From Acidobacteriota bacterium (GTDB lineage Bacteria > Acidobacteriota > UBA4820 > DSQY01): a stretch of DNA of 64,000 nt. The stretch is from NCBI GenBank assembly GCA_021778515.1, contig JAJYCJ010000005.1:1341-65340 (forward strand), read 5' to 3'. Below, one piece after another: positions 5,336-21,740 of the stretch. Both the position numbers and the translations under genes were made by a program. Position 1 is the first letter of the stretch. Each line of letters opens with the position of its first letter. The notes under the pieces were generated by a model. It was not told the DNA's origin. It did not search any database and was given only the letters and a program-made list of their open reading frames with translations.

Positions 5336-5944
5336 TCAGCGGCCCAGGCCTCCGGCGGGAACGTTGATTCCCAGGACCCCGTCCACCCAGTGGTCCCCCT
5401 CCCTGATGAAAGGCACCGCCACGTAGGCCAGGCCGGTGGGTTCGAAGAAGCCCTCCACTCCCGTGACGTCGCCGGCCCTGTCCAGATAGGCCAGCCAGGT
5501 CAGGCGGGCCATTTCGGGGAGGTCCGCCGGATCCAGCACTCCCTCCTGAACGGGGGCCTCCCCCGGCGCCAGGATGATGTTCGCCGGAGCCAGGGCGTAC
5601 CGGAGCGTCAGGTTATCGTAGAGCGCCGCCCGCGGGCTCCAGAAGGCCGGGAAGAACAGGGGCCCCAGAGGGGTCAGGCGATCGTAGGCCCTCCCGCGCT
5701 CCTCGTCCGGCGCGCGCCAGCTCGCCTTGCCCTCCAGCCGCCAGAAGGGGACGTAGATCGGCTCTCCCGAACCTATGCCCGCCGAGGGTTTGGCGTACAG
5801 GAGGGGGAAGGGTCTCGGAGATCGGTGCATGGAAACCGCCAGGCGGCATGGGTGGCAGAGAAAGACGAGGGCCCGGCCGCCGCCCGCCAGCTCGCCCCCG
5901 CACCGAGGACAGGCCAGGGGAACCAGCAGGGCCTCGCCGGTCAT
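5336..5944 (-). CDS. Zn-ribbon protein, paralog 3 of a triplet (function unknown)
   Basis: Real start at MTGEALLVPLACPRCGGEL..FLCHPCRL (C-x2-C-x14-C-x2-C) inside a longer Arg/Pro-rich frame-shadow ORF. Shares the ..YVPFWRLEGK.. motif with the two upstream genes. ATGA start/stop overlap with the upstream gene at 5941-5944. Confidence 0.5.
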   Translation of the reverse strand: MTGEALLVPLACPRCGGELAGGGRALVFLCHPCRLAVSMHRSPRPFPLLYAKPSAGIGSGEPIYVPFWRLEGKASWRAPDEERGRAYDRLTPLGPLFFPAFWSPRAALYDNLTLRYALAPANIILAPGEAPVQEGVLDPADLPEMARLTWLAYLDRAGDVTGVEGFFEPTGLAYVAVPFIREGDHWVDGVLGINVPAGGLGR

Positions 5945-7110
5945 AGGCCCCACCGTTCCAGCCCCTTGGCGGCTCCGCCCAGGATGGCCCCCAAGAAGAA
6001 TCGCAACAGCGCATTGACGGGAGCCATGGGGCTCCTGGGCACGGGCCCCGCGGCATCCACCTTCATGCCGCCGCCTCCCAGCCGGACCTCGAGCGGGGCC
6101 CGGATCATCAGCCAGGCCGCGTTGAGTCCCAGCGCGATGAGGAAGAAGAGGAGCACGCCCACTACCGCCAGGACGCGCACCACGACCCAGCGTCCCTGGC
6201 CCTGCGCGAGCTCCTGGCCGGCGCTGACGGCGCCGGCGATGACCGAGAGGAACTGGCCGACAAAAAAGCCCAGGCCCGCGGTCATGACGAGGCCGGCCAG
6301 GACCGCGTAGTCCCTGCGGAAGGGGAGGTGGCCCGACACCCATCGCCCTCCCACCTCTTCGATAGTCACGGTGTAGAACTGGCCGCCGTAACGGAAGGTC
6401 AGGGTCTGAACCGGAATGTAGAGAAGGGTCGTCTGGAGCTGCATGACCTTGAGCTCGCCCGCCGCCGATTGGACGGCCTTCACGCCGATATCGAGGATCC
6501 TCTCGATAGGAATGTCCACGTCCACCACCTCGCCCTGGCCCGCCAGCTCCTCGATATCGGCCGGGACCGCACGGTCCAGGCTCTCCTTCACAGCGTCCCG
6601 GAGGTCCACGTCCAAGAGGTCCCAGTTGGAGAGGGCTGCCGCGGGGTACAGGTAACGGAAGTCGCCCAGGATCACGCGGCTGTCCTCCTCCACGCGGACC
6701 TCGGTCTTCTGTCGTTGGAAGGTGCGCTGATACGGCCCGCGGAGGGCGGCCGCGTCCAGTCTGGGAAGGCCGGCCCCGGGCTCTTGCACAATCCTCTCCC
6801 TGCCGGTGGCCAGCACGCCGCCCCTCTTGCCGGTGAGGAGATAGAAGGGGAGATAGCTCCTCTGCCGCCTCACGAGGAGAGCCCTGCGGCTGAGGTCCGA
6901 GGGGAGCCAGCGGCCGCGCAGCAGATCCCGCGCCGCGGCCTGCAGGTCCTGCTCGCTCATGGAAGGCGGGAGCAGGTATCGCGGGAGAAAGCCCGGTTCA
7001 CGGTAGAAGAGCGGCTTGCCGCAGAATTCGCAGATGGTCTTTCGGGCGGCCAGCGGCGGGCCGACCGTTCCCCCGCACGCGGGGCAGCTCAGCGCCCTTG
7101 GTCCGCTCAT
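5941..7110 (-). CDS. Zn-ribbon membrane protein, paralog 2 (function unknown)
   Basis: Start MSGPRALSCPACGG..ICEFCGK (C-x2-C-x15-C-x2-C) at complement 7108-7110. ..SYLPFYLLTGKRGG.. motif. Two to three C-terminal TM helices. ATGA overlaps on both sides. Confidence 0.55.
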   Translation of the reverse strand: MSGPRALSCPACGGTVGPPLAARKTICEFCGKPLFYREPGFLPRYLLPPSMSEQDLQAAARDLLRGRWLPSDLSRRALLVRRQRSYLPFYLLTGKRGGVLATGRERIVQEPGAGLPRLDAAALRGPYQRTFQRQKTEVRVEEDSRVILGDFRYLYPAAALSNWDLLDVDLRDAVKESLDRAVPADIEELAGQGEVVDVDIPIERILDIGVKAVQSAAGELKVMQLQTTLLYIPVQTLTFRYGGQFYTVTIEEVGGRWVSGHLPFRRDYAVLAGLVMTAGLGFFVGQFLSVIAGAVSAGQELAQGQGRWVVVRVLAVVGVLLFFLIALGLNAAWLMIRAPLEVRLGGGGMKVDAAGPVPRSPMAPVNALLRFFLGAILGGAAKGLERWGL

Positions 7111-7823
7111 GGCCCGCCCTCCTGGAAGAATCGTCGCGCGGCGGGATAGGCTGCCGCCGCGCTCCCCGCCACCAGAGCGAGGCTCCAGATGCCCTGCAGG
7201 AAGAAGGCCTCGGCGGTGAAGACCAGGAACAGAAGAGTCAGCATCGTCCAGAAGCGCCTGGAAATCTGCTTGGTCTGCGGGGGCGGGCCCTCCCCCAGAT
7301 GGACCTTGCCCGTGACTCCGTCGATCCACGCCGCGTAGGTCTTGTCCGCACCGTAGGTCACCCGGTAAAAGGGCACCATGACCAGGCTGAACCGGCCCGA
7401 TGCCTCGCGCCCGTGCCACTGGGCCGAGGCGCTCTCGGCGCACGGCAGCACCGCGAAGCCGCTGGCGGCCTCGTCGGAGAAGTAGACGGCGCCGGCCGAA
7501 GGCAGGCTGAAACCGTGCAGGGCGGGAGGCTGGGGGCTGAAGGCGGCGACGGTCCTCCGTCCGCCCTCCCCCTGAACGCTCCAAAACGGAAGGAACTCTG
7601 GATTCACGGACTGGACGGGAAGGGAGGGCATCTCCGCCTCGGCCAGCGCCTCCCGCAGGAGGAGATCCACCCTGGCCCGGGGCACGGCGGGCGGAATCAG
7701 GAACCGCTGGAAGGTCTGGGCCCGATCCAGGTAGAGCGTGGAACCGCAGAAGGGGCAGCGAAGGAAGGGCTCGTCCCGTTCAAGCGCGATCTTCCCGGCG
7801 CAGTTCGCGCACTGGACCTCCAT
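7107..7823 (-). CDS. Zn-ribbon membrane protein, paralog 1 (function unknown)
   Basis: MEVQCANCAGK..LRCPFCGSTLYLD (C-x2-C-x15-C-x2-C), ..EFLPFWSVQGEGG.. and a C-terminal hydrophobic helix (FWTMLTLLFLVFTAEAFFLQGIWSLALVAG). Confidence 0.55.
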   Translation of the reverse strand: MEVQCANCAGKIALERDEPFLRCPFCGSTLYLDRAQTFQRFLIPPAVPRARVDLLLREALAEAEMPSLPVQSVNPEFLPFWSVQGEGGRRTVAAFSPQPPALHGFSLPSAGAVYFSDEAASGFAVLPCAESASAQWHGREASGRFSLVMVPFYRVTYGADKTYAAWIDGVTGKVHLGEGPPPQTKQISRRFWTMLTLLFLVFTAEAFFLQGIWSLALVAGSAAAAYPAARRFFQEGGP

Positions 7824-7902: not shown

Positions 7903-9309
7903 TTACCGCCCCTTCCGTCTTCCTTCCAGCACCCCGGCCAGCCTCCGCGGCAGGTCGTAGAAACTCCCGCTGGAAAAGAAGGCCACGAGATCCCCGCCCC
8001 TCAGCCGGCCGGCGAACCACTCCAGGTACTCCTCCGGCGAGGCCATGACCTCGGCCTCCTTTCCCGCCGACCTCAGCGCGGAGGCCACGAGGACGAGGTC
8101 GAGCCGCTCCTCCGCGGGGATCTTCCCCGGGCCCGGCATGGGACCGAGAAGGACGGCCTGGGCCAGCGGAAAGGCCATGGGCAGGGAATCCTGATGCTGC
8201 CGGGTCTGGCACGTGAAGGAGCGGGGTTCGAAACAGGCCACGATGCGGCGGCCCGGGTAACGCTGGGCCAGTGCGGCGAGCGTCTCGCGGATGGCCGTCG
8301 GGTGATGCGCGAAGTCATCCACGATGGTGATTCCGCCGCCGTCGAACACCACCTCCTGCCGACGGCGGACCCCCGGGAAACCGGCTAGCGCCTCGCGCAA
8401 TGCCTCCAGTGGGGCGCCGGCCTCCAGGCAGGCCGCGAGCGCGGCGATGGAGTTCCTGAGGTTGTGGGCGCCGCTCAGGGGGCTGGCGAATGGGCCCAGC
8501 CGCACTCCCGCTCGGACCAGGACGAATCGCGCGCCCGCCGGAGTGAAGGCCACCTCGTCCGCGGTCCACTCCTCCCTTCCGGAGAGGCCGAAGCTCTGTG
8601 CCCGCCGCCCCGCCAGGGGCGCGAGCTTCCTCACCGAGGGGCTCTCCACGCCGAGGAGGACCAGTCCCTCCGGGCGCACCGCGCCGAAGAGGCGCACGAA
8701 GGCCGTTTCGAGCTCGCCCAGGGTCTTGAAATTGTCCAGGTGGTCCATCTCGATGTTATTCACGATCAGGAGGCTGGGAGCGTAATGCAGAAACTTGGGT
8801 CCCTTGTCGAAGTAGGCCGTCTCGTACTCGTCGCCCTCGAGGACGGTCCACTCTCCTCCGCCCCAGAGGAAGGAACTCTCCAGGCCCTTCACGACGCCGC
8901 CCACGATGAGGTTGGGCGCGAGTCCGGCCCTCTCCAGAAGGTAGCCGCAGAGGGCCGTGGTGGTCGTCTTGCCGTGGGTGCCCGCCACCACGAGGCTCCT
9001 GCGCCCCTGCACCGCGAAGCGCCCGATCGCCTCGGCCATGGAGAGATAGTCGATGCCCTCATCCACCGCGGCCCGCGCTTCAGAGTTGTCCGAGTGAATC
9101 GCGTTGCCGATGATCACGAGATCCGGCCTCGGATTCAGGTGTGCCGGATCAAACCCCAGGGCCACGGGGATGCCGTAGCGCGCCACCATCTCGCTCATGG
9201 GCGGGTAGAGGGCCGTGTCGCAACCCGTCACCTCGTGTCCCTGCGCCTTCAGGAGGCCCGCGAGAGCCCCCATCCCCGTGCCGCCCACGGCCATCATGTG
9301 AATCCTCAT
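7903..9309 (-). CDS. mpl: UDP-N-acetylmuramate:L-alanyl-gamma-D-glutamyl-meso-diaminopimelate ligase (Mpl) / MurC family
   Basis: Starts MRIHMMAVGGTGMGALAGLL. Mur ligase motifs GTHGKTTTT and ..IVNNIEMDHLD.. are present. ATG at complement 9307-9309. Confidence 0.8.
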   Translation of the reverse strand: MRIHMMAVGGTGMGALAGLLKAQGHEVTGCDTALYPPMSEMVARYGIPVALGFDPAHLNPRPDLVIIGNAIHSDNSEARAAVDEGIDYLSMAEAIGRFAVQGRRSLVVAGTHGKTTTTALCGYLLERAGLAPNLIVGGVVKGLESSFLWGGGEWTVLEGDEYETAYFDKGPKFLHYAPSLLIVNNIEMDHLDNFKTLGELETAFVRLFGAVRPEGLVLLGVESPSVRKLAPLAGRRAQSFGLSGREEWTADEVAFTPAGARFVLVRAGVRLGPFASPLSGAHNLRNSIAALAACLEAGAPLEALREALAGFPGVRRRQEVVFDGGGITIVDDFAHHPTAIRETLAALAQRYPGRRIVACFEPRSFTCQTRQHQDSLPMAFPLAQAVLLGPMPGPGKIPAEERLDLVLVASALRSAGKEAEVMASPEEYLEWFAGRLRGGDLVAFFSSGSFYDLPRRLAGVLEGRRKGR

Positions 9310-9491
9310 CGCCCCTCCCTCCCAGCAGGTCCGAGCCGGCGTCCCGCTCCTCGCTCGCAGAATGAGCATGATAATCCAGGGACCGCCAAAATGCAGTGCA
9401 GCCGCCGTCATGAACGGAGGCCTCCCGCGCGAGGGCCGACCGGGGCCGACGTGCGCAACCCGCTGCGGACGCGAGTTCGGGCGTGTCTTCC

Positions 9492-9520
9492 TTGAAATCG
9501 GCTGGGCTTCTTGCTACCTT
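9492..9520 (+). promoter_or_regulatory. Putative sigma70-type promoter for the pduS-like gene (TTGAAA-N17-TACCTT)
   Basis: TTGAAA at 9492-9497 and TACCTT at 9515-9520 with 17-bp spacing. GGAGG RBS 5 nt before the ATG at 9538. By-eye match only. Confidence 0.25.
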
Positions 9521-9537
9521 GGCGCAGCGGAGGCCCC

Positions 9538-10836
9538 ATGCGGGAAGCGGCTAGGATTGCTTTTGAAAATGGTGTGGTGGGCGCCGGAGGGGCCGGCTTT
9601 CCTACCCACGCCAAACTCTCGGCCTCCGCGGACACCTTCGCTGTCAACGCCGCCGAGTGCGAGCCCCTCCTCTACAAGGACCAGCAGATCCTCGAGCACT
9701 TCCTTCCGGAGTTCGCACAGGGGCTTCTCCTTTGCGGCGAGGCCGTGGGCGCGGGGCGTCTGATCGTGGGGATCAAGGACAAGCACCACGAACTCATCGA
9801 ACGGCTCCGCGACGAGCTTCCCCGCCAGGTGGAGGTGTGTCCCCTGCCCGACACCTACCCCTCCGGCGACGAGCACCTGCTGGTCTTCGACGCCACGGGC
9901 CGCGCCATTCCGAAGGGCGGAATTCCCCTGGACGTGGGCGTCGTCGTCAACAACGTCGAGACGGTCTTGAACGTGGGCCTGCAAAGACCGGTTACGCATA
10001 AATTCCTCACCGTTTCGGGGGAGGTGCCCGAGGCTCTCACCTTTCGGGTGCCCATCGGGGTGAGCCTCCGAGAGGTGCTGCACGCCGCCGGCGCCCCCAC
10101 GGGAGGGATGGGCTTCATCGTCAACGGCCCCATGATGGGAACGGTCACGGACGACCTCGAACAGCCGGTCACCAAGACCACCTCGGGAGTGCTGGTTCTT
10201 CCTTCGGACCACTCGCTCATCCTCCGGAAGGGCCGCAGGACACGGGATGTCCACAAGATCGCCTACACCTGCGACCAGTGCATGCGGTGCTCCGACCTGT
10301 GCCCGAGGGACCTCCTGGGCCACTTCGTCAAACCCCACAAGGCCATGATCTCCATCGGCTTCGCGGCGGAAGAAAAGATGGCCTGGCAGCAGACGGCCCT
10401 CTACTGCTGCGAATGCGCCCTCTGCACCCTCTACGCCTGCCCCGAGGACCTGGACCCCTTCCGCATGATGGTGGAGAGCAAGCGCGCCCTCATGGCCCAG
10501 GGGATCCGCCCTCTGAAGCAGGCGGTGGAACCCAGCCCCCTGTACGACTTCCGCCGCACGCCGACGAGCCTGCTCATCCGCCGGCTGGAGCTGGCGCCCT
10601 ATCAGCATCCCCAGAAGTATGTGGAGATGGACCTGCATCCGCGCCGCCTCGAACTGCCTCTCAAACAACACACCGGAGCCCCCTCCACTCCGTCGGTCGG
10701 GAAGGGACGATCGCTGCGCGGCGGGGACCTGGTGGCGGACGTCCCCGAGGGGAGCCTGGGCGCCAAGATCTTCTCTCCCCTCGCGGGCCGCGTGGGCGAG
10801 GTTTCAACGGACCGCATCGTCGTGGAGGTCGCATGA
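9538..10836 (+). CDS. pduS: PduS-like cobalamin reductase / RnfC-family Fe-S flavoprotein
   Basis: N-terminal ..ENGVVGAGGAGFPTHAKL.. motif. Two 4Fe-4S ferredoxin motifs (CDQCMRCSDLCP and CCECALCTLYACP). Immediately followed by, and overlapping ATGA with, a PduT-like BMC-T gene, which is the canonical pduS-pduT order. Confidence 0.7.
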   Translation: MREAARIAFENGVVGAGGAGFPTHAKLSASADTFAVNAAECEPLLYKDQQILEHFLPEFAQGLLLCGEAVGAGRLIVGIKDKHHELIERLRDELPRQVEVCPLPDTYPSGDEHLLVFDATGRAIPKGGIPLDVGVVVNNVETVLNVGLQRPVTHKFLTVSGEVPEALTFRVPIGVSLREVLHAAGAPTGGMGFIVNGPMMGTVTDDLEQPVTKTTSGVLVLPSDHSLILRKGRRTRDVHKIAYTCDQCMRCSDLCPRDLLGHFVKPHKAMISIGFAAEEKMAWQQTALYCCECALCTLYACPEDLDPFRMMVESKRALMAQGIRPLKQAVEPSPLYDFRRTPTSLLIRRLELAPYQHPQKYVEMDLHPRRLELPLKQHTGAPSTPSVGKGRSLRGGDLVADVPEGSLGAKIFSPLAGRVGEVSTDRIVVEVA

Positions 10837-11528
10837 GCCCCAAAATCCACCAAATCCGCGGGGCGGATCGTGGGCGCGGCCCCGCGCCGAAGAAGCCCAA
10901 GACGGACGCCGCTCCGATCCAGCCGCCGAAGGACAGCTACGGCGGCCAGAGGCGCGGGCCCGCCGTCAAAGACGCCATCGGCCTTCTGGAGCTGACTTCC
11001 ATCGCCAAGGGAATCGAGGCCACGGACCTGATGCTCAAGGCCTCCGACGTGGAACTCCTGGCCAGCCGGTCCATCTGCTCGGGCAAGTACATGGTTCTGG
11101 TGCGAGGCGACGTGGCCGCCTGCACCTCCTCCGTGGCCGCGGGCGAAGAGGTGGCTCGGGAGACCCTGGCCGACTCCGTCGTGATCCCGCACCTCCATCC
11201 CGAGATCTTTCCGGCCATCGCGCAGGCCTCGCTGGTGGAGGAGGTGGGGGCGCTGGGCATCCTCGAGTCCTTCAACGTGGCCAGCCTGATCGAGGGCGCC
11301 GACACCGCCGTGAAGTCCTCCGAGGTTCACCTCCTCGAGATCCGCCTCGCCATGGCCCTGGGGGGCAAGGCCTTCTGCGTGCTCACGGGACAGGTGGCCG
11401 CGGTGCGCTCGGCCGTGGAGGCCGGCAAGTCCGTGATCGGAGCCAAGGGCGCATTGACCAACTGGTCGGTCATCCCCTCCCCCGATCGCGCGCTCGTCAA
11501 GGAAATTCTGGGTGGCCGCCTGATCTAG
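10833..11528 (+). CDS. pduT: Bacterial microcompartment shell protein, tandem-BMC-domain (BMC-T), PduT-like
   Basis: Two PF00936-like domains (AIGLLELTSIAKGIEATDLMLKASDVELLASRSICSGKYMVLVRGDVAA.. and ..ALGILESFNVASLIEGADTAVKSSEVHLLEIR..GGKAFCVLTGQVAAVRSAVEAG) closely matching the PduT pattern. A ~45-aa basic low-complexity N-terminal extension is present. ATG at 10833 overlaps the pduS stop. Confidence 0.75.
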   Translation: MSPKIHQIRGADRGRGPAPKKPKTDAAPIQPPKDSYGGQRRGPAVKDAIGLLELTSIAKGIEATDLMLKASDVELLASRSICSGKYMVLVRGDVAACTSSVAAGEEVARETLADSVVIPHLHPEIFPAIAQASLVEEVGALGILESFNVASLIEGADTAVKSSEVHLLEIRLAMALGGKAFCVLTGQVAAVRSAVEAGKSVIGAKGALTNWSVIPSPDRALVKEILGGRLI

Positions 11529-11555
11529 GGCGGCCCAAGCCATGGGAGACACGAG

Positions 11556-12908
11556 ATGAGATCGAGCACCGTCCCGAACGGACCAACGGCCGGGGAAGGC
11601 CGGGCCTTTCCCCTCCTCCTCGTAGCTCTGGCTCTTTTCTCGACCTGCACCGCCGTTGCGGCCCAGACCCCTCCGCCCGCTCCTCCCGAGAAGCAGATCA
11701 CGGGGGTCATCACATCGAGCGGCTTCACCCAGCTCTCCATCGCGATTCCGCCGAGCAAGACGGAGGCCACCACGGCCGTCCAGGCCCAGGAGATCCTCTC
11801 CACGGTGACGGGCGATCTGGAGTTCTCGGGCTACTTCCAGCTCGTGGACCCATCCCTTTTCGCCGGGATGAATCCGAACGACACCAAGGTCGACTACGAT
11901 GCATGGACGGGGATGAAGGCGGACTATCTCCTCCTCACCAACGTCTATGCCTCCGGGAACCAGCTCACCCTCGAAGGCCGGCTCTATGACATCAAGCGCA
12001 AGGAGATGGTGACGGGCAAGCGCATCAAGGGCCCCGCCCAGGACGTGCGGGTCCTGGCCCACAACCTCTCTTCCGTGATCCTCGACTACCTCTTCGGCGC
12101 GGGGAGCTTCCCCACCAGCCAGATCCTCTTCACCTCGCACCTGGCCACCACGGAGGACATCTTTCTCTGCGATTACGACGGGAAGAACATCCTCCGCCTC
12201 ACGGCCATGGGCCAGCTCAACGTGACCCCCGACGTGAACCCCCAGGGCAACCTCATCGTCTTCACCTCCATCCTGAAAGACAGGCAGGAGATCTTCCTGC
12301 TGGATCGCCAGGGGCGGCGGAGGAAACTCTACGGGGACGGCGAGGGACTCAACTCCAACCCGCGATTCTCCCACGACGGCAAGACCGTGGCCTTCTGCTC
12401 CTCCCGGTCCGGGAACCCCGACATCTGGACCATCGGCGTGGATGGCAAGAACCTGACGCGGCTCACCTTCTCCTACGCCATCGACACCGCGCCCTGCTGG
12501 TCGCCCAACGACCAGCAGATAGCCTTCACCTCCGACCGCTCGGGCTCTCCCCAGATCTACATCATGGACAGGGACGGCGCCAACGTGAGGCGGTTGAGCC
12601 CACTGGACAGCGGGCGCTGCGATCAGCCCATCTGGTCCCCCCGCGGCGACAAAATTGCTTACAGCTCCTACAAGGACGGCCACTTCAACATCGCCGTGGC
12701 GGACCTGACCACCGGCGAGGTCACCTTTCTGACCCACGGGGAGGGAGACAACGAGGCGCCCTCCTGGTCGCCCGACGGGCGGTACCTGGCCTTCGCCAGC
12801 AACCGCTCCGGGAGCTATCAGATCTACATCATGCGTTGGGATGGGTCGGGAGTGACCCGGATCACGAACCAGCCGGACTGCTATTCGCCCTGCTGGTTCA
12901 AGGGCTGA
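11556..12908 (+). CDS. tolB: TolB-like periplasmic beta-propeller protein
   Basis: Signal peptide. Repeated ..SP.WSPDG..IAF.S.RSG...I... beta-propeller blades (..NPRFSHDGKTVAFCSSRSGNPDIWT.., ..APSWSPDGRYLAFASNRSGSYQIYIM..). No tolQRA or pal genes nearby. Confidence 0.75.
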   Translation: MRSSTVPNGPTAGEGRAFPLLLVALALFSTCTAVAAQTPPPAPPEKQITGVITSSGFTQLSIAIPPSKTEATTAVQAQEILSTVTGDLEFSGYFQLVDPSLFAGMNPNDTKVDYDAWTGMKADYLLLTNVYASGNQLTLEGRLYDIKRKEMVTGKRIKGPAQDVRVLAHNLSSVILDYLFGAGSFPTSQILFTSHLATTEDIFLCDYDGKNILRLTAMGQLNVTPDVNPQGNLIVFTSILKDRQEIFLLDRQGRRRKLYGDGEGLNSNPRFSHDGKTVAFCSSRSGNPDIWTIGVDGKNLTRLTFSYAIDTAPCWSPNDQQIAFTSDRSGSPQIYIMDRDGANVRRLSPLDSGRCDQPIWSPRGDKIAYSSYKDGHFNIAVADLTTGEVTFLTHGEGDNEAPSWSPDGRYLAFASNRSGSYQIYIMRWDGSGVTRITNQPDCYSPCWFKG

Positions 12909-13057
12909 GTAGGACCTGCGGGGGAGGAAATCATGCACTCGCGGGGGAATCGGCGGATCGGGGCTGGCAGGACGGCCCGCGGCCTCCGGGCCGAGCTGGC
13001 CGCGGCGGCTCTGGTCCCCGGGCGAACCCGTCCATCGGCCTCCTGGCCGGTACTGCG

Positions 13058-14746
13058 GTGATCGCCAGCCTACGCCTGAAGGATTACGCCCTGGTGGACG
13101 AGCTCGTGTTGGAGCCGGGGGGCAAGCTGTGCCTTCTCACCGGCGAGACGGGCGCGGGGAAATCCATACTGGTCGATGCCGTGGGACTGCTGGCCGGGAA
13201 CCGCGCCGAGACCGAGATGGTGAGGACCGGAACCGAGGAGGCCGTGATCGAAGGCTCCTTCCGGCCGTCCCTGAAAGCCGCCGACGTGGCCGCGCTCATG
13301 CGGGGCTGGGATCTGGCCTTCGAGGGCGAGCTGGTGATCCGGCGCCGGATCCAGCGCTCGGGAAGGAACACCGTGACCCTCAACGGCGCCGCCATCACGC
13401 TGGCCCAGCTTCGCGAACTGGGCGCCCTCCTCGTGGAGATCCACGGGCAGAACCAGAGCCAGACGCTCCTCGACGAGGAGACCCACCGCCGCATCCTCGA
13501 CGCGCTGCCCTCGGTGTCCCCGGCGGCCGACGCCCTTATCGCCGCATCGGCAGATCTAGCCCAGGCCCTGTCCCGCTGGCGGGCGCTCAGCCGCAGCGAG
13601 GCGGAGAGGGCCCAGCGGCTGGATCTCCTCCGCTTTCAGATGGAGGAGATCGACCGGGCGGCCCCGAGGGCGGGTGAAGAGGAGGAGCTGCTGGCCTCCA
13701 AGAGCCGGCTGCAGAACGTGGAGCGCATCGCGGAGGCGGCCGGTTCGCTTCACCAGATCCTTGCCGAAGGCGACCCCTGCGTGCGGATGCTCCTATCGGA
13801 TGCGACCCGATGGATCGAGGCGCTGAAGGAGGCCGATCCGGACTGGGGGGCCTACCTCGCCGACCTCCGCCAGGCGTCCGGCGTGCTCTCCAGCATCGCC
13901 TCGGAGGCGGAGCGCACGGCCTCCACCATCTCGTTCGATCCCGAAGCCCTGGAGAGAACCCTTCAGCGCCTCGCCGACCTGGACCGCCTCAAACGCAAGT
14001 ACGGCCCAACCCTCGATGACCTCCTCGCTCACCGGGCGGCCATAGGGGAGGAGGCGGCCCAGCTCTCCGGCGGCGAAGCCACCGCCGACGGGGCTCGCGG
14101 GCGGGTCGAGGCCACCTTCGGGCAGTACATGCGGCGCGCCCTGGAGCTCAGCTCCGCTCGAAAGGCCGCCGCCGTTGAGTTCGGGAACGCCGTCGAAGCG
14201 GAGCTCAAGCCCCTGGCCATGGAGCGGGCCCGCTTCCTGGTCGAACTGGTCCCGCATCCCGTGGGCCGCGCGGAGGAGGCCACGGAGGCGGGCCTGGAAG
14301 CGATCCAGTTCCTCTTTTCGAGCAACCCCGGCGTGCCCCCCAAGCCCCTGGCCAAGATCGCTTCGGGCGGAGAGCTGAGCCGGACGCTCCTCGCCCTCCT
14401 CACGGCCACGAGGCAATGGATGGGGACCGACACGATCATCTTCGACGAGGTCGATGCGGGCATCGGCGGGCGGCCCGCCGAACGGGTCGGCAGGCGGCTC
14501 CGCAGGCTGGCGGAACACCACCAGGTCCTCTGCATCACCCACCTGCCGCAGATCGCCGCGTTCGCGCACCAGCACATCACCATCGAGAAGGTTCAGACGT
14601 CCAGGCACACCACCGTCACCGCCAAGACCCTCGGACCCGAAGATCGCGAGAGGGAGTTGGCCAGGATGCTGGCCGGGGAAAGGATCCAGGAGACCGCGCT
14701 GGGCCACGCCAGAACCCTGCTCGCCTCGGCCTCGGACGCGGAGTAG
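13058..14746 (+). CDS. recN: DNA repair protein RecN
   Basis: GTG start giving (M)IASLRLKDYALVDELVLEPGGKLCLLTGETGAGKSILVDAVGLL.. Coiled-coil middle, and a C-terminal ABC signature region ..ASGGELSRTLLAL.. followed by ..IIFDEVDAGIGG.. Confidence 0.85.
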   Translation: MIASLRLKDYALVDELVLEPGGKLCLLTGETGAGKSILVDAVGLLAGNRAETEMVRTGTEEAVIEGSFRPSLKAADVAALMRGWDLAFEGELVIRRRIQRSGRNTVTLNGAAITLAQLRELGALLVEIHGQNQSQTLLDEETHRRILDALPSVSPAADALIAASADLAQALSRWRALSRSEAERAQRLDLLRFQMEEIDRAAPRAGEEEELLASKSRLQNVERIAEAAGSLHQILAEGDPCVRMLLSDATRWIEALKEADPDWGAYLADLRQASGVLSSIASEAERTASTISFDPEALERTLQRLADLDRLKRKYGPTLDDLLAHRAAIGEEAAQLSGGEATADGARGRVEATFGQYMRRALELSSARKAAAVEFGNAVEAELKPLAMERARFLVELVPHPVGRAEEATEAGLEAIQFLFSSNPGVPPKPLAKIASGGELSRTLLALLTATRQWMGTDTIIFDEVDAGIGGRPAERVGRRLRRLAEHHQVLCITHLPQIAAFAHQHITIEKVQTSRHTTVTAKTLGPEDRERELARMLAGERIQETALGHARTLLASASDAE

Positions 14747-15017
14747 ACGGCCATGAACTCCAGGAGGCAAAGAACGTGAGGGCCGTCACAAAAGCCGCTT
14801 CCAGCAAGCCTTTAGCCTTGCATCGCTGGAAACGCCGCAATACACTGTATTTGAATGTCATTTTTCCGCCACGAGAGGAGTCTGCTCGCAATTCCCCGGG
14901 AGGCGGCATGAGGAAGGCTCCATGGATCATAGACCATCCCCATCCACCCGCGACCCGGCCTTGCACCGTGGGCGGAGACCCGGACCGATGAGACGAGAGC
15001 CGGGCTCGGAGGGAATC

Positions 15018-18000
15018 ATGGAACACGTCAAAGGACGAGCTGGCACGCAGTTTCGGTGTCTGGTGCTGGCGTTGGGTTGCCTTCCCCTTCTGCATGCGTT
15101 ACCCGCGCGCGCTTCGGGGCCCACGCCCCTCTCCGGCGAGGCGGGTCCGCGGCTGGAGAAGGCCTACGGCGCCGTTTCGCTGCATTTCGAACCCAACCGG
15201 GGGCAGAGCGATCCCCGGGTCGAGTATCTCGCCCACGGACGCGGTTTCGGGCTCTACCTCAACAGGACGGGGGCGACCCTCGTCCTGAGCGCCCCGACAG
15301 GCGCCCAGGCGCGGGGCTCCCGGCGGACCCCCCTGGATTCCTGCCCTCAGGCCTGCTCCACGATCCGCCTGTCTCTGGAGGGCGGCAATGCGGCTCCCGC
15401 GCTGGTGGGCCTCGACCGCCTCGCCGGCACCTCCAGCTACTTCCTGGGGAATGACCCCTCTCGGTGGATCACGGCCATCCCCACCTTTGGGCGCGTCGCC
15501 TGCAAGCAGGTCTACCCGGGCGTGGACATGGTCTACTACGGAGACGGGAGGGCCCTGGAATACGACTTCCTGCTTGCCGCGGGGACGAATCCCCGAACGA
15601 TCAGGCTCCGGTACGAGGACGGGGCGGGGAAACCCGTCCCCTTGCAGATCGGTTCCAACGGCGATCTTCTCCTCCCGACTCCATTCGGCCGACTCGTCCA
15701 GCGCGCCCCCGCCGTCTTCCAGGTGCGGAACGGGGCGAAGATCGCGCTCTCTGGCCGCTACGAGATCCTGGGACCTGGGCGCGTGGGGCTCGCCGTGGCC
15801 GGTTACGACCCGGCTCTCCCGCTGACCATTGATCCGATTCTCAGCTACTCCACCTACCTCGGCGGCAGCGGCCTGGATCAGGGCCAGGGCATCGCCGTGG
15901 ACGCCAACGGGAACGCCTACGTGACCGGCTTCACCGAATCCGCAGACTTCCCGGTTTCGGCCGGAAAGGGGCCCTACGGGCAGAAGGACGCCTTCGTGAC
16001 GAAGCTCTCTCCCGACGGCAAGAGCCTCGTTTACTCGGTCTATTTCGGTGGAACCGGCGACGACATCGCCCGCGGCATCGCGGTGGACGCTCAAGGCGAC
16101 GCCTTCATCGTCGGAGGGACGACCTCCTTCGACCTCCCCGTTCTCAACGGCTTTCAATCCACCCACGGCGGCTCGCCCACGGCGCCCAACTCGGACGCCT
16201 TCATCGCCGAACTGGGCCCCGGCGGCACCTCGCTCGTCTACTCCTCCTATCTCGGTGGGAGCGGCAACGACGAAGCGACGGCCGTCGCCCTCGATGCGGC
16301 CGGCAATGCCTTCATCACCGGCGACACCTCCTCTGCCGACTTCCACTCGTCGGGCAACGCTTACCAGCCGGCCTACGGGGGAGGTTTTAGAGACTCCTTC
16401 CTGTGCGAGGTGGCCCCAGGAGGGAGCACGCTGCTCTACTCCACCTATCTGGGAGGAGATGCGGACGACTACGGAAACGGCGTCACCGTGGACGCGCTGG
16501 ATCACGTCTTTGTCACCGGCGGTACGTCCTCGGTCGCTTTCCCTATCTCCTCGAACGCCCTTCAACCTGCGCTGCGGGGCTCCACCAACGCCTTCGTGAG
16601 CGCCTTCGACTTCAGCGCTCCGGCCGGCACGACTCCGGGCCTGCTCTATTCCACCTACCTGGGGGGAAGCGGGAGCGATGCAGGCCAAGCCATCGCCTCC
16701 GATGCAAGCGGCGACGCCTATGTGACGGGCTACACGACCTCCACGGATTTTCCCGTCACCCAGGGTTCATTCCACGGCGGGGCGGACGCCTTCGTGGCCA
16801 AGCTCGATCCCACGGGGGGTTCCCTCCTCTTCTCCACCTATCTCGGCGGCTCCGCCTACGACGCCGGGTACGCCATCACCGTGGGGGGCGACGGCAGCGC
16901 CTACGTGACCGGCGTTACCTACTCCACGGACTTTCCGACCGCCTCCCCGGTCCAGGCGGCCAACGCAAGCGCTTCCACCAGCAACAGCGACGCCTTCGTG
17001 AGCAAGCTGTCGCCCTCGGGCTCGGCCCTCTCCTTCTCCACCTACCTGGGAGGCGGCGATAACGACCAGGGGCAGGCCATTGCCCTGGACTCGGCTGGCG
17101 GCGTCTATGTCGCTGGCACTACCTATTCCAGTAATTTTCCGGTGCAGAACCCGTTTCAAGGCAGCTATGGCGGTAACGGCGACGTCTTCATCTCCAAGAT
17201 CCTCCTGGCCGACTGCACCCTCACGTGCACCGCCGTGGCCTCCCCCAGCACCGGTGCGGCCCCCCTCTCCGTCGCCTTTTCGGCCACCGCCACGCCGAGC
17301 AACTGCGGAAGCGGCACGGCGGCCTACGACTGGGACTTCGGGGACGGCACGCCCCACTCGAGCGCGCAGAACACCAGCCACACCTACACCCAGCCGGGGA
17401 GCTACACCTGGACGCTGACCGTGAGCCTCGACGTCACCACGTGCACCCAGAGCGGCACCATCGTCGTCACCCCCGGCTGCACCGTGAGCTGCTCGGCCAA
17501 CGCCACCCCCACGGCGGGTCCGGCGCCGCTGGCGGTGGCGCTCACCGCCTCCGCCTCCTCCTCGGACTGCGGAACGGCGGCCACCTACCTGTGGAACTTC
17601 GGTGACGGCACGGCCTCTTCCACGGCCCAGAACCCGAGCCACACCTACCTCCAGCCGGGCACCTACACCTGGACCGTGACGGCCACCATCGGCGGCAGCA
17701 CGTGCACTCAGAGTGGCTCGGTGACGGCGCTGGCGACCCCGGGAAGCCTCTCGGGCATGGTGGCTATCTCCGCGGGAGACCAGTTCTTCTCCCTCGACGG
17801 GCCGGGCATCGTCTCGGGCAGCGTCACGGCGGTGGACTCCACGGGCAACGCGATTACGGCGCCTCTGTCGGGAGGTCACTTCTCCTTCACGGGGCTCGCC
17901 CAGGGGAGCTACCAGCTCACCGCCACGGTGACGTACGCGGACAACGTCCTCTTCGACGCCGATCTGCTGAGCTATGGCTGCACGGCGCCTTCGAACATGC

Positions 18001-20729
18001 AGATTCAGAAGACGGCCGTCTCCGCACCGGTCGCGGTGAACACGTCCAACACCGCCTATGTGGTGCTCTCCTTCCCGCCGCCGCTGGTCATGATCCACGG
18101 CATGTTCGACTGCTATCAGAAGTGGTACGACCCCAACGCCTCGGACTCCAACGCCGCCCTTTACTGGGACAACGACGCGCGGGCCCACGGCCTTATCAGC
18201 TTCACGCCCAACTACGCCTGGTGGGGAGGGACTTCGAGCTGGCCCACCATGGCCGACGAGGTGGCCCAGCAGATCGGGCAGGACCTCTCCGGACTGAACT
18301 CCAGCGGCGCGGGAACGGGCTCCGCCGTCCCGCCCATCCCCACCGTCTGGATCGCCCACGACATGGGGGGCCTCGTGGCGCGGGTGCTGGCCTCGGGCGA
18401 GCACCAGAACGACGCGCTGGTGCAGAACGTCTGGAAGATCTACCTGCTCGGCGTGCCCAACAGCGGCACGAACCTCCAGCTGGCGGGGAGCGACAACGGC
18501 ACCCTGAGCACCGACACCATCCTGCGGCGCTTCAACGCCGTCTATCCCGACTTCGGGAGCCTGGAAGGACGAGTCTACGCCATCGCCGGGGACAGCGGCC
18601 TGTGGGGGCTCCAGAACGACGACGGCCTGGTCTCCCTGGCCTCGGCCTTCACCATCTCGCGGGAGCTGTGCACGACGACCTTCGGCTACCCCGTCTGCCA
18701 GCAGTACCCCGCGGTGAGCTTCGCCGCCGGGACGGGCCACATCTTCGATTTCTCCCATGCGGAGCTCGGCGGTCCCGCTTCCACCCAGGCGATCCTCGAT
18801 GGGATCATCCTGCCTGGCGTGGCGGCCCTGGCGAAGAGCGGCCTGCTGCCGGAGCACGTGCCTGAAGGGCCTGCAGGTGGTGTCATTTGGGGCACCACCA
18901 ACCGCACGTCGGGAACCAAGCGGCAACGCATCAAGGCCACCCTCAGCCGCGCCGAGGCGGGCCAGTCCTTCTCCTACCCTTTCACCGTTTCGGACACCGA
19001 TGGGATGGCGCTACTGGCTACCGTTACCGACGGTTCCGCCGATTTCCAGGTGCTCGACCCCACGGGCCAGGTGGTGCAGAGCAGCCTCTCGGTGGACGGC
19101 CTCTTCTCCTTCTCCACCCTCAATCCGGCCCCGGGCGCCTGGACGCTCGTCGTGACCCCCGGCAGTTCGGGGGTCTCCTTCACCGCCACGGCGCAGGAAG
19201 ACAGCCCCTTCGGCATCCGCGGGAGCCTGGACGCGGGCTACTACCTGCCCGGCTCCACGGCGGTCCTCCGGGTGGACCTGGAGGGCAGCCCCCAGGTGAC
19301 CCCGCAGCAGGTCAGCGCCTCCCTGTACGATACGGCCGGCAACCTCATCGAGGGGCCCGTCACCCTCTACGACGACGGTCAGCACGAGGACGGCGCTCCG
19401 GGCGACGGCTCCTACGGCGCCCTCCTCGCCGTCTTCCCGAATCCTGGAGACTATCCCGTCGTCTTCACCGCCACCGGCGCCTACCAGGGAGAGGCCTTCT
19501 CCCGGCTCGCCTTCGCCACCCTGACGGTGGTGCCCTCCACCCACCTGCTGACGGGCGCCTTTGCCTTCTCGCCCGTGAGCGCCTCCGGCGGAAGCACCAT
19601 GGACGCCATCCAGATGACCGCCGGCGTCACTCTGCCGGCGGCGGGGAGCTACGCCCTCTCGGCGGACTTGATGGATGCGGGCGGCCTCTTCGTGGCCCAC
19701 GCCTCCACGGCCCTCACGGCCACCGCGGCGGGCCTCACCACCGCGACCCTGGTCTTCCCGCTGGACGGCGCCACCTGTAGCCAGCTCGATGCCCCGCTGA
19801 CGGTGGCCGGCCTCCAGGTCCTGGACGGAGCCACCCTGACGCCCGAGGACGTCTGGGGTTCTCCCCTCTACACCCCGGCCTACCCCTCCGGCACCTTCTC
19901 CTGCCAGAGCGGTACCCCCGAGCCCACGCCCACGGCCCTCCAGCCCTCCCTGGCCGTGACGGGTACCTCCATCAGCCTTCTGGTGGCGGGCACCGGCTTC
20001 CAGAGCGGCGCCACCCTCACCTTCGACTCGGGGATCCAGGTCAACAAGGTGGTCCAGCTCTCGCAGAACCTCCTGTCGGCCTCCATCACCATCCTCTCGA
20101 ACGCGGCCGCGGGCGGCCACACGCTGACCGTCACCAATCCCAACGGCACTTCGGGGAACCTGGTTTCGGCCCTGACCATCACGCCGAACCTGCCGCCCAC
20201 CGTCACCCTCTTGACCCCCGCCAGCGGCACCAGCTATACAAGCTCCCCCCCCACCCAGGTGAGTGTCTCGGCCTCCGCGAGCGACGACATCGGAGTCACC
20301 CAGGTGGTCTTTCTGCTGGACGGCACGCCCTTCGCCAACGTGAGCCAGTTCCCCTTCATCTGGAGCTTCCCCTCCTCCGTCCTGACCCATGGCGCCCACA
20401 CCCTGACGGCCGTGGCCTACGACCCCAGCGGCCTGACCGCCCAGGCCTCCGTGACAATCTACAAAGACCCGCCCACCATCACGGCCATCAGCAAGCTGAC
20501 AAACCCCTTCCGGCTGAAAGTCACGGGGACCAACTTCCTCCCGGGCCTCTCGGTCACCATCGGGAATGATGCGGCCCCCTGGCCCGGCGTCACTGTCAAA
20601 TCGGACACCAAGCTGATCCTTAAGAAGGGGGCCGGCCTCAAGGCGCTCTTCCCGAAGGGTCAGGCTGTACCCATCCGCATCGCCTACCCCGACGGCACCG
20701 AAGGAACGGCCAGCTACACCAGGCCCTGA
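15018..20729 (+). CDS. Giant secreted multidomain protein (1903 aa): SBBP beta-propeller repeats, two PKD domains, LipA-like alpha/beta-hydrolase domain, Ig-like and IPT/TIG C-terminal domains
   Basis: Signal peptide MEHVKGRAGTQFRCLVLALGCLPLLHALPARA. Repeated YSTYLGGSG.D.G.GIAVDA.GNAYVTG.T.S.DFP units (SBBP). Two PKD units (..PSNCGSGTAAYDWDFGDGT.. and ..SSDCGTAATYLWNFGDGT..). Lipase-like block PLVMIHGMFD..WIAHDMGGLVARVL. C-terminal Ig-like repeats. Confidence 0.75.
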   Translation: MEHVKGRAGTQFRCLVLALGCLPLLHALPARASGPTPLSGEAGPRLEKAYGAVSLHFEPNRGQSDPRVEYLAHGRGFGLYLNRTGATLVLSAPTGAQARGSRRTPLDSCPQACSTIRLSLEGGNAAPALVGLDRLAGTSSYFLGNDPSRWITAIPTFGRVACKQVYPGVDMVYYGDGRALEYDFLLAAGTNPRTIRLRYEDGAGKPVPLQIGSNGDLLLPTPFGRLVQRAPAVFQVRNGAKIALSGRYEILGPGRVGLAVAGYDPALPLTIDPILSYSTYLGGSGLDQGQGIAVDANGNAYVTGFTESADFPVSAGKGPYGQKDAFVTKLSPDGKSLVYSVYFGGTGDDIARGIAVDAQGDAFIVGGTTSFDLPVLNGFQSTHGGSPTAPNSDAFIAELGPGGTSLVYSSYLGGSGNDEATAVALDAAGNAFITGDTSSADFHSSGNAYQPAYGGGFRDSFLCEVAPGGSTLLYSTYLGGDADDYGNGVTVDALDHVFVTGGTSSVAFPISSNALQPALRGSTNAFVSAFDFSAPAGTTPGLLYSTYLGGSGSDAGQAIASDASGDAYVTGYTTSTDFPVTQGSFHGGADAFVAKLDPTGGSLLFSTYLGGSAYDAGYAITVGGDGSAYVTGVTYSTDFPTASPVQAANASASTSNSDAFVSKLSPSGSALSFSTYLGGGDNDQGQAIALDSAGGVYVAGTTYSSNFPVQNPFQGSYGGNGDVFISKILLADCTLTCTAVASPSTGAAPLSVAFSATATPSNCGSGTAAYDWDFGDGTPHSSAQNTSHTYTQPGSYTWTLTVSLDVTTCTQSGTIVVTPGCTVSCSANATPTAGPAPLAVALTASASSSDCGTAATYLWNFGDGTASSTAQNPSHTYLQPGTYTWTVTATIGGSTCTQSGSVTALATPGSLSGMVAISAGDQFFSLDGPGIVSGSVTAVDSTGNAITAPLSGGHFSFTGLAQGSYQLTATVTYADNVLFDADLLSYGCTAPSNMQIQKTAVSAPVAVNTSNTAYVVLSFPPPLVMIHGMFDCYQKWYDPNASDSNAALYWDNDARAHGLISFTPNYAWWGGTSSWPTMADEVAQQIGQDLSGLNSSGAGTGSAVPPIPTVWIAHDMGGLVARVLASGEHQNDALVQNVWKIYLLGVPNSGTNLQLAGSDNGTLSTDTILRRFNAVYPDFGSLEGRVYAIAGDSGLWGLQNDDGLVSLASAFTISRELCTTTFGYPVCQQYPAVSFAAGTGHIFDFSHAELGGPASTQAILDGIILPGVAALAKSGLLPEHVPEGPAGGVIWGTTNRTSGTKRQRIKATLSRAEAGQSFSYPFTVSDTDGMALLATVTDGSADFQVLDPTGQVVQSSLSVDGLFSFSTLNPAPGAWTLVVTPGSSGVSFTATAQEDSPFGIRGSLDAGYYLPGSTAVLRVDLEGSPQVTPQQVSASLYDTAGNLIEGPVTLYDDGQHEDGAPGDGSYGALLAVFPNPGDYPVVFTATGAYQGEAFSRLAFATLTVVPSTHLLTGAFAFSPVSASGGSTMDAIQMTAGVTLPAAGSYALSADLMDAGGLFVAHASTALTATAAGLTTATLVFPLDGATCSQLDAPLTVAGLQVLDGATLTPEDVWGSPLYTPAYPSGTFSCQSGTPEPTPTALQPSLAVTGTSISLLVAGTGFQSGATLTFDSGIQVNKVVQLSQNLLSASITILSNAAAGGHTLTVTNPNGTSGNLVSALTITPNLPPTVTLLTPASGTSYTSSPPTQVSVSASASDDIGVTQVVFLLDGTPFANVSQFPFIWSFPSSVLTHGAHTLTAVAYDPSGLTAQASVTIYKDPPTITAISKLTNPFRLKVTGTNFLPGLSVTIGNDAAPWPGVTVKSDTKLILKKGAGLKALFPKGQAVPIRIAYPDGTEGTASYTRP

Positions 20730-20797
20730 GTCTTCGTAATCTCGACCGATGCACAGGGGCGGCCTCCGGGCCGCCCCTCTTCGTCACCCCTCCAAAG

Positions 20798-20948
20798 CTG
20801 TCACCCTGAGGCCCCCCCCAGAGGGCTCCCCTGGAAGGGTCTCAGGCGTGGGCCTGGAGTAACGCCGGTGGGCTCCGGGGCCGTTGGGCGCACTCCCGCG
20901 CCTGAGATCCCTCGGGGGCTCTGCTTCGAAGGAGCCCTCAGGATGACG
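20798..20948. mobile_element. MITE/REP-like element copy 1 (~151 bp) with imperfect terminal inverted repeats
   Basis: tgtcaccctgagg...cctcaggatgacg. About 85% identical to the copy at 21369-21521. Internal inverted repeat gtctcaggcg / cgcctgagatc. Confidence 0.6.
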
Positions 20949-20976
20949 ACGACGACGCGGCGAGGGTGGTTCGTTG

Positions 20977-21294
20977 TCAGTGGGGCGGCAGCGTCCGCTC
21001 ACTCCTCAGGTCCGGCGTGAGATCGCTCCAGCCGGGATTCACCGATTCCACGAGGGCGATCTTGCGTGCTCTCAACCAACCCTTGATCTGCTTCTCACGG
21101 GCGATGGCTCCCAAAGCTCTCTCGCCGACCTCGTAGTAGACTAGTTTCTTCACGTTGTAACGGGAGGTGAACCCATCCTGCTTTCCTCGCCGGTGCTCCT
21201 CCATCCTCCGGATGAGATCGGAGGTCACGCCCACGTACAGCGTCTTGGTGCGGCTAGGCAGGATGTACACGAAGAACAGCTTCTTTCGCGCCAT
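20977..21294 (-). CDS. GIY-YIG nuclease superfamily protein (UPF0213/YhbQ-like)
   Basis: ..KLFFVYILPSRTKTLYVGVTSDLIRRMEEHRRGK..RYNVKKLVYYE.. matches the GIY-YIG motif. Local GC (~56%) is clearly below the surrounding ~68%. Flanked by two copies of a 150-bp repeat. Confidence 0.75.
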   Translation of the reverse strand: MARKKLFFVYILPSRTKTLYVGVTSDLIRRMEEHRRGKQDGFTSRYNVKKLVYYEVGERALGAIAREKQIKGWLRARKIALVESVNPGWSDLTPDLRSERTLPPH

Positions 21295-21368
21295 GATTCA
21301 CGCTTTCATCCTTTTCGCCTTCGGTCTCGTTCACGGTGCGGCCAGTCAAGCCCCCACCCTCCCCATAG

Positions 21369-21521
21369 CTGTCACCCTGAGGGCACCCCCAGAGGGCTCC
21401 CCTGGAAGGGTCTCAGGGGTGGGCCTGGAGGAACCCCAGTGAGGGCTCCGCTGACGTTTTGCCTGGTCCCGCGCCTGAGATCCTTCAGGGGCTCCGCTGC
21501 GAAGGGGCCTTCAGGATGACG
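21369..21521. mobile_element. MITE/REP-like element copy 2 (~153 bp)
   Basis: Same termini as copy 1 (ctgtcaccctgagg ... cttcaggatgacg) and the same internal palindromic structure. Same orientation, on the other side of the GIY-YIG gene. Confidence 0.6.
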
Positions 21522-21740
21522 GGAAAGCGGGGGGCGGATCTCCTTGACAAGTCGCGGGGGGGGGTAGCCTTGAGCCACCTTGACAGGAGGTGTTCGATGT
21601 GTACGATCCTCTTCCTCATTACGGTCCTGGTCTGTTCTCCTTCCGGCGGCGTTGTCTGGGGCACGACGAGCTGAGCGGCACCGGGGCCCGAAGCCCGGGG
21701 ATGCCCTGGCTGGGCCTCCCTGGGCCTCCCCCCTTCCGTG

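Follow-up and report, generated by a model that had tools for sequence, protein, structure and literature searches.

A 64,000-nucleotide stretch of DNA (67% GC) from a metagenome-assembled genome (MAG) of an Acidobacteriota bacterium (assembly GCA_021778515.1, contig JAJYCJ010000005.1), here called the window, carries adjacent genes for relatives of PduS and PduT, proteins known from bacterial microcompartments (BMCs). We consider it highly probable that this pair is the electron-relay module of an ACI-type compartment, designated MNdh/BMC-T^SE (metabolosome NADH dehydrogenase and shell trimer protein), and that its genes form a satellite locus separate from the main genes for shell proteins and enzymes. 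By analogy with described pairs, its function is most likely the regeneration of NAD+ inside the shell. The features of the pair are these:

9538 to 10836, plus strand: pduS-like gene (MNdh), 432 aa, recognized with Pfam
10270 to 10305, plus strand: PduS tetracysteine [4Fe-4S] motif 1, C245-x2-C248-x2-C251-x3-C255-P, found by regular expression on the translation, inside the Fer4_17 match
10405 to 10443, plus strand: PduS tetracysteine motif 2, C290/C291-x-C293-x2-C296-x4-C301-P, found by regular expression on the translation
10824 to 10829, plus strand: GGAGGT Shine-Dalgarno sequence of pduT, within the 3' end of pduS, kept in eight orthologous loci
10833 to 11528, plus strand: pduT-like gene (BMC-T^SE shell trimer protein), 231 aa, with two PF00936 domains
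10833 to 10973, plus strand: N-terminal tail of PduT, 47 aa, comprising a conserved tip MSPKIHQI(K/R) and a variable basic Pro/Gly/Ala-rich linker
11076 to 11078, plus strand: codon of Cys82, the predicted pore ligand of a [4Fe-4S] cluster, in an invariant column and aligned with PduT Cys38

The domain composition of the PduS-like protein is that of its namesake. Pfam finds Complex1_51K (E 3e-40), SLBB, Fer4_17 and, at the C-terminus, RnfC_N, which corresponds to the set that marks PduS/MNdh (pfam01512, pfam10531, a 4Fe-4S dicluster and pfam13375, with the last at the C-terminus). The best match in the Protein Data Bank (PDB) is RnfC (7ZC6_C, E 7e-41), which aligns in two permuted pieces: PduS residues 4 to 311 with RnfC 123 to 424, and residues 360 to 423 with RnfC 22 to 84. 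The two proteins are thus related by circular permutation, and it is by this altered domain order that PduS/MNdh proteins are recognized in the literature (PMC11626177, section 6). The tetracysteine sequences read CDQCMRCSDLCP at residue 245 and CCECALCTLYACP at residue 290, and a Gly-rich FMN/NADH motif, GAGGAGFP, lies at residue 15. RnfC of the Rnf complex is similar over the approximately 300 aligned residues of the FMN/NADH-binding and di-cluster domains. The window protein differs in that its barrel-sandwich domain is permuted to the C-terminus, in the lack of further rnf genes nearby, and in its score against TIGR01945 (202.9, below the cutoff of 245.95).

The PduT-like protein is a tandem of two non-permuted PF00936 BMC domains (Pfam E 3e-45). 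Its best NCBIfam match is eut_PduT (TIGR02526, 137.7 bits), followed by EutM (69) and CcmO (60.7), and the best solved structures are all of PduT type: 3NWG, 3PAC and 3N79 (E 3e-48 to 5e-41, with 3PAC at 3e-44 and 3N79 at 5e-41). AlphaFold2 models residues 48 to 231 confidently as two alpha/beta BMC domains; nearly every 10-residue block has a pLDDT of 83 or more, and one is at 72. Cys82, in the sequence SICSGKY, is invariant among 21 and among 42 aligned homologues and aligns with Cys38 (TICPGKF) of the solved Citrobacter PduT (3PAC); it is the predicted ligand of a [4Fe-4S] cluster in the trimer pore. The same Cys38, again within TICPGKF, is matched in what we take to be the sequence of Salmonella PduT, to which the window protein is 42% identical. 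Two edge lysines, K69 and K161, are invariant in the alignments and presumably correspond to K26 of PduA; they are what a shell-packing tile would need. The CSGKY of the window protein also fits the pore motif C-P/S/A-G-K/R/S-Y/F set out in a review of GRM compartments (PMC6325248). A second cysteine, Cys97 (VAAC; 11121 to 11123), is nearly invariant in this acidobacterial clade and has no counterpart in Salmonella PduT or in 3NWG. A third, Cys182 (AFC), occurs in most of the subclade with an N-terminal tail and in few others.

Pfam, NCBIfam and PDB matches agree with a preliminary description of this DNA, which had placed pduS, pduT and a tolB-like gene between 9538 and 12908. Its further suggestion that the Cys in SRSICSGKY occupies the Fe-S-ligating position of PduT was borne out. 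A better alignment of the BMC-T protein to a non-PduT family, which it named as grounds for refutation, was not seen: PduT is the best family, with a score below the cutoff.

A main compartment locus was found elsewhere in the same genomes. The exact PduT of the window occurs on DAHYCO010000026 (GCA_027388645.1) and DAHYCP010000065 (GCA_027388615.1), while a BMC-P protein, P0257, is encoded on DAHYCO010000028 and DAHYCP010000070 of these two assemblies, respectively. Because both proteins are present in the same two MAGs, on separate contigs, the pair is not orphaned. The route to the main locus was the first BMC-P of a related locus (L009), which as a query pointed to BMC-P proteins of 88 aa that cluster at 90% identity. 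For two more MAGs, the accessions of PduT and BMC-P fall in one NCBI series (MGA9751030/MGA9751649 and MGC8722523/MGC8723796). The BMC-P variants P0180 and P0258 were rejected as links to the two MAGs with the exact PduT; they belong to sibling MAGs or samples (GCA_027388675.1 and GCA_021839685.1).

The main locus (L104, L106) encodes a TPR protein, a class II aldolase, a 99-aa BMC-H, three EutN-type BMC-P proteins, a 185-aa protein with a Cys-rich C-terminus and a 326-aa 2-hydroxyacid dehydrogenase (pfam00389/02826), the last approximately 3 kb from the BMC-P genes and on the opposite strand. The Aldolase_II protein ends in a helical tail, ...REELVQLLAEFARSRGNG, judged by eye. Two further elements of these loci are recorded here as observations. 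A type I restriction-modification system flanks the main locus (L104) on the side away from the ferredoxin-like gene described below, and in some strains or samples a 134-aa PDDEXK_3 gene lies between BMC-P genes 1 and 2 (L093, 10310 to 10714; L102, 635 to 1039), an insertion absent from L094, L095, L104 and L106.

Within the window itself the pair stands alone. Searches by tblastn with PduA, EutN, CcmL and PduB as queries matched only the two BMC domains of PduT, and Pfam on the remaining window genes revealed no aldehyde dehydrogenase (AldDh), aldolase or PTAC in the 64 kb. The preliminary statement that no other BMC gene lies within 20 kb on either side holds downstream; upstream of pduS, the window allows it to be checked over 9.5 kb. 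Relatives present the same picture. A survey with one genome per species yielded 80 loci with a PduT relative (53 to 99% identical), in 78 of which pduS adjoins pduT. Flanks of up to 10 kb were fetched, and among the 45 loci for which both flanks reach 5 kb or more, 43 have neither BMC-H nor BMC-P within them. The two that do are L066 and L088. In L066, from a complete-chromosome MAG, the pair is embedded in a full locus with the order DeoR, BMC-P triplet, RpiB-like protein, PduS, PduT, PTAC, AldDh, BMC-H, aldolase and acetate kinase; its AldDh belongs to another BMC type. A single PduS/PduT lineage is therefore found both in main loci and, much more often, alone. The loci that are 98 to 99% identical, and other relatives, are labelled Acidobacteriota or Thermoanaerobaculia. 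Isolation is thus the norm rather than the exception among these relatives, and the expectation, also voiced in the preliminary description, of pduS and pduT within large operons no longer holds for this lineage. In 19 loci of Ignavibacteria/Melioribacteraceae type (within L029 to L092), a gene of approximately 590 aa precedes pduS on its strand, at a distance of approximately 58 nt. The N-terminus of its product resembles FHA on visual inspection, and the gene is a conserved neighbor specific to that lineage.

Published descriptions accommodate this arrangement. In the 2021 catalogue of compartment types, the aldolase of the ACI type has an encapsulation peptide at its C-terminus and is accompanied by a hydroxyacid dehydrogenase, unknown proteins, BMC-H, a BMC-P triplet and an AldDh on a satellite; the hosts belong mainly to subdivisions 4 and 6 (PMC8217296). 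Isolated PduS/PduT pairs have been described for the ACI, PVM and FRAG types (PMC8217296, Supplementary Data 2; PMC11626177). A 2024 PNAS study renamed such pairs MNdh/BMC-T^SE, showed NADH-driven electron transfer from FMN through three [4Fe-4S] clusters, proposed that NAD+ is regenerated inside the shell and that the acceptor lies outside, and located five of seven ACI occurrences in satellite loci (PMC11626177).

The window pair shares with MNdh/BMC-T^SE the four-domain order of PduS with RnfC_N at the C-terminus, the two tetracysteine motifs, the adjacent tandem-BMC protein with a pore cysteine in C-S-G-K-Y, and the position as a satellite of an ACI-type compartment. It departs from the described pairs in the 47-residue basic tail of PduT with its conserved tip and in the grouping with tolB and recN. 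The main locus likewise matches the ACI type in its acidobacterial host, an aldolase (pfam00596) that ends in a helix, BMC-H, a BMC-P triplet, a Cys-rich unknown protein, a pfam00389/02826 hydroxyacid dehydrogenase and the placement of PduS/PduT elsewhere. The differences are that the present relatives are labelled Thermoanaerobaculia, Aminicenantes or unclassified Acidobacteriota, whereas the catalogued hosts are of subdivisions 4 and 6, and that the Cys-rich protein has 185 aa here and approximately 80 aa in ACI. The PduS and PduT of the Salmonella and Citrobacter 1,2-propanediol compartment have the same folds and pore cysteine, but they sit in an operon of about 20 genes with a B12-dependent enzyme, of which there is none here. 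An MNdh/BMC-T^SE satellite of an ACI-type compartment is in this sense an ordinary arrangement that is known already, not an anomaly. The preliminary idea of a satellite shell locus was thus well founded, and the main locus that it proposed to seek in the rest of the genome does exist.

Downstream of the pair, two more genes follow in the same direction, and a divergent gene lies upstream:

11556 to 12908, plus strand: tolB homologue with signal peptide, 450 aa, with TolB_N and PD40
13058 to 14746, plus strand: recN (SMC_N), the last member of a conserved pduS-pduT-tolB-recN block, with the start taken from the MAG gene call
7903 to 9309, minus strand: mpl-like Mur ligase gene (Mur_ligase, Mur_ligase_M, Mur_ligase_C), divergent neighbor given as context only

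The four genes of the block run head to tail on the plus strand from 9538 to 14746, and 228 nt separate pduS from the divergent mpl-like gene. The ATG of pduT overlaps the stop codon of pduS (ATGA), an overlap that implies translational coupling, and the GGAGGT stands 4 nt before this ATG, a distance conserved in the eight orthologous loci. The gap from the pduT stop to the tolB start is 27 nt, in keeping with the close downstream position first ascribed to the tolB-like gene, and that from tolB to recN is 149 nt. Judged by its spacing, tolB reads as part of one transcription unit with pduS and pduT. A scan of 9250 to 15000 for sigma-70 promoters gave no promoter-like site, and terminator-like sites in this interval were no commoner than in shuffled sequences, with none between the four genes; both results are uninformative because the host is a 67% GC acidobacterium. 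Gene calling based on GC3 (GC content at third codon positions) picked antisense open reading frames inside pduT and tolB, and the MAG gene calls were used instead.

The TolB homologue has TolB_N and PD40 repeats behind an N-terminal hydrophobic signal sequence, and scores 333.7 bits against TIGR02800, short of the equivalog cutoff of 343.15. No tolQ, tolR, tolA or pal was recognized among the window genes. The tolB-recN arrangement directly behind pduT recurs in L007, L009/L010, L012, L013 to L019 and L021 to L023, loci labelled Thermoanaerobaculia, Aminicenantes or unclassified Acidobacteriota. In L009, where the PduT core is 70% identical, the four genes are followed directly by BMC-H and three BMC-P genes, and further on by genes for a 126-aa unknown protein and a 2-hydroxyacid dehydrogenase. 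There (8640 to 16316), as in L010, tolB and recN are embedded in the compartment locus, on one strand and with small gaps.

Could the block reflect functional coupling with TolB and/or RecN, for example by linking the redox state of the compartment to the envelope or to DNA repair? We find this improbable, although it is the alternative that fares best. Several observations would suit it: the block order is retained between lineages whose RecN proteins share only 36% identity, even where the outer flanks differ, the 27-nt gap here shrinks to a 4-nt overlap of the pduT stop and tolB start in two relatives, no terminator-like site intervenes, and main BMC genes follow recN directly in L009. Set against these, 68 of the 80 related loci have no tolB beside the pair, and other lineages have their own, unrelated conserved neighbors. 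TolB is periplasmic in all studied systems and the homologue has a signal sequence, whereas compartments are cytoplasmic, and we know of no biochemical link between TolB or RecN and compartments. Because TolB has a signal peptide, pduS-pduT-tolB-recN reads as a gene order inherited within one clade rather than as a functional link. The question whether pduS-pduT-tolB is conserved in relatives thus has a divided answer: it is so within this clade and not in most related loci, and a functional meaning is unsupported.

In the mechanism that we favor for the MNdh/BMC-T^SE module, PduT trimers would tile into the shell, each with a [4Fe-4S] cluster held at the central pore by Cys82 of its three chains. 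PduS would dock on the lumenal (convex) face and oxidize NADH produced by an encapsulated aldehyde dehydrogenase, and electrons may then pass from FMN through the two [4Fe-4S] clusters of PduS to the pore cluster and on to a cytosolic acceptor. Such export would regenerate NAD+ inside the compartment. The basic, disordered tail of PduT would project from the concave, cytosol-facing side, and tolB and recN would share the transcription unit through clade-inherited gene order, with no part in the compartment.

Several points weigh against this satellite reading. The published model ties MNdh to compartments that contain AldDh (PMC11626177), and none is encoded in the window or in the flanks of the main locus out to 10 kb, no genome-wide search for AldDh having been made. 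PduT, at 137.7 bits, falls well short of the equivalog cutoff of TIGR02526 (250.3) and is therefore a divergent member of the family. MAG binning could have joined contigs of different organisms, yet four MAGs agree. The binding of Fe-S clusters, the interaction of PduS with PduT, their encapsulation and the direction in which electrons move are features that we infer from described relatives. Finally, the tight conservation of tolB-recN behind pduT across classes is not explained by the model.

A repurposed pair, also raised in the preliminary description, would work without any compartment, for example with free PduT trimers or sheets serving as a stand-alone redox scaffold. It would account for the lack of shell and cargo genes in the 64-kb window and for an operon shared with housekeeping genes, and the additional N-terminal tail could signal a new role. 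It is nevertheless very unlikely: the same MAGs hold a complete locus with BMC-H, a BMC-P triplet and aldolase, the tiling lysines K69 and K161 are invariant, and isolated pairs are documented as satellites of ACI, PVM and FRAG compartments. Equally remote is the classical Pdu role, with PduS as a cobalamin reductase regenerating adenosylcobalamin for a B12-dependent enzyme, which is reportedly the original biochemical assignment of the Salmonella and Citrobacter proteins; neither the window nor the main locus encodes a B12-dependent diol dehydratase, ethanolamine lyase or adenosyltransferase, and the 2024 study argues that this role is irrelevant outside the PDU and EUT types (PMC11626177).

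What sets this satellite pair apart is the tail of PduT. Described beforehand as a Lys/Arg/Pro-rich extension of about 45 aa, it is real and 47 residues long, with the composition P8 K6 G6 R5 A5, a pI of 10.7 and a net charge of +7. Between 10833 and the BMC domain there is no in-frame ATG, GTG or TTG. We rejected a mis-called start as its source in view of this lack of an alternative start, the conserved ATGA coupling and Shine-Dalgarno sequence, and the retention of the tip. Tails of 30 to 49 extra N-terminal residues are present in 43 of the 102 closest homologues, every one of them net positive (+2 to +11), with the consensus tip M-S-P/A-K/R-I/P-x-x-I-K/R followed by a variable Pro/Ala/Gly/Lys/Arg linker. 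In the eight orthologous loci the tip residues are retained despite synonymous codon changes, and purifying selection therefore acts on the protein. A search for the tip motif in the rest of the window and in the main BMC locus matched nothing beyond PduT, and the motif is thus no shared tag of the encapsulation-peptide kind. AlphaFold2 gives residues 1 to 46 no secondary structure (pLDDT 49 to 61). In non-permuted BMC domains the termini are on the concave face, towards the cytosol, and the tail should therefore be cytosolic. That face is described as outside-facing in the 2024 study, the main text of which has no "extension" of this kind (PMC11626177). A clade-specific tail with a selected tip is modestly new, as a minor variant of the shell tile.

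Its purpose may be suggested only tentatively. One role for the tail might be that of a capture arm, which would catch the cytosolic acceptor to which the MNdh/BMC-T^SE relay delivers its electrons; another might be that of a tether to a surface on which this acceptor is located. We think either unlikely, if somewhat less so than the coupling with TolB or RecN considered above. A candidate partner for the basic tail is a very acidic ferredoxin-like protein of 77 aa near the main locus (L104, 18510 to 18743, minus strand; pI 4.05, net charge -14, Fer4_13/15). Its gene is located approximately 8 kb from the BMC-P triplet, beside a sigma-54 activator.

Other parts of the window contain features that may interest readers for reasons of their own. 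On the minus strand at 5336 to 7823 are three consecutive genes for proteins of 238, 389 and 202 aa, with no Pfam family on record. All three proteins begin with a zinc ribbon of the form CxxC...CxxC, and two also have stretches of hydrophobic residues towards the C-terminus. Weak paralogy links the 389-aa protein to that of 238 aa, and the former is also weakly similar (23% over 273 aa, 36.6 bits) to a zinc-ribbon protein of 378 aa whose gene neighbors the main BMC locus in the same MAG (L104, 12817 to 13953, minus strand). The trio is kept beside mpl in L007 and L013 to L018. Behind recN, the genes at 14922 to 26024 are extra relative to L007, and include those for a PKD/SBBP surface-type protein of 1935 aa, a GIY-YIG protein and an adenylate-cyclase/AAA/TPR protein of 1427 aa. 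The genes directly after recN in L007 are those for a PilZ response regulator, TatC, TatA and MMPL, an order that the window resumes at 26055. GC content falls to 61.6% at 22 to 24 kb of the window. On the minus strand at 53943 to 61282, two adjacent genes for proteins of approximately 1220 aa with DUF3857, one of them also with a transglutaminase core, come after a cluster of thiolase, enoyl-CoA hydratase and HMGL-like genes.

The locus deserves annotation as an MNdh/BMC-T^SE (PduS/PduT) satellite of an ACI-type microcompartment, and beyond annotation it matters little. Thermoanaerobaculia-like Acidobacteriota are among the hosts of ACI-like compartments with this redox module, and in one subclade the shell tile has acquired a conserved basic tail, which could help in finding the external electron acceptor. 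If the tail should prove to be a capture arm, the clade would open a way into a question that arises from the 2024 study (PMC11626177), namely what takes up the electrons outside the shell.

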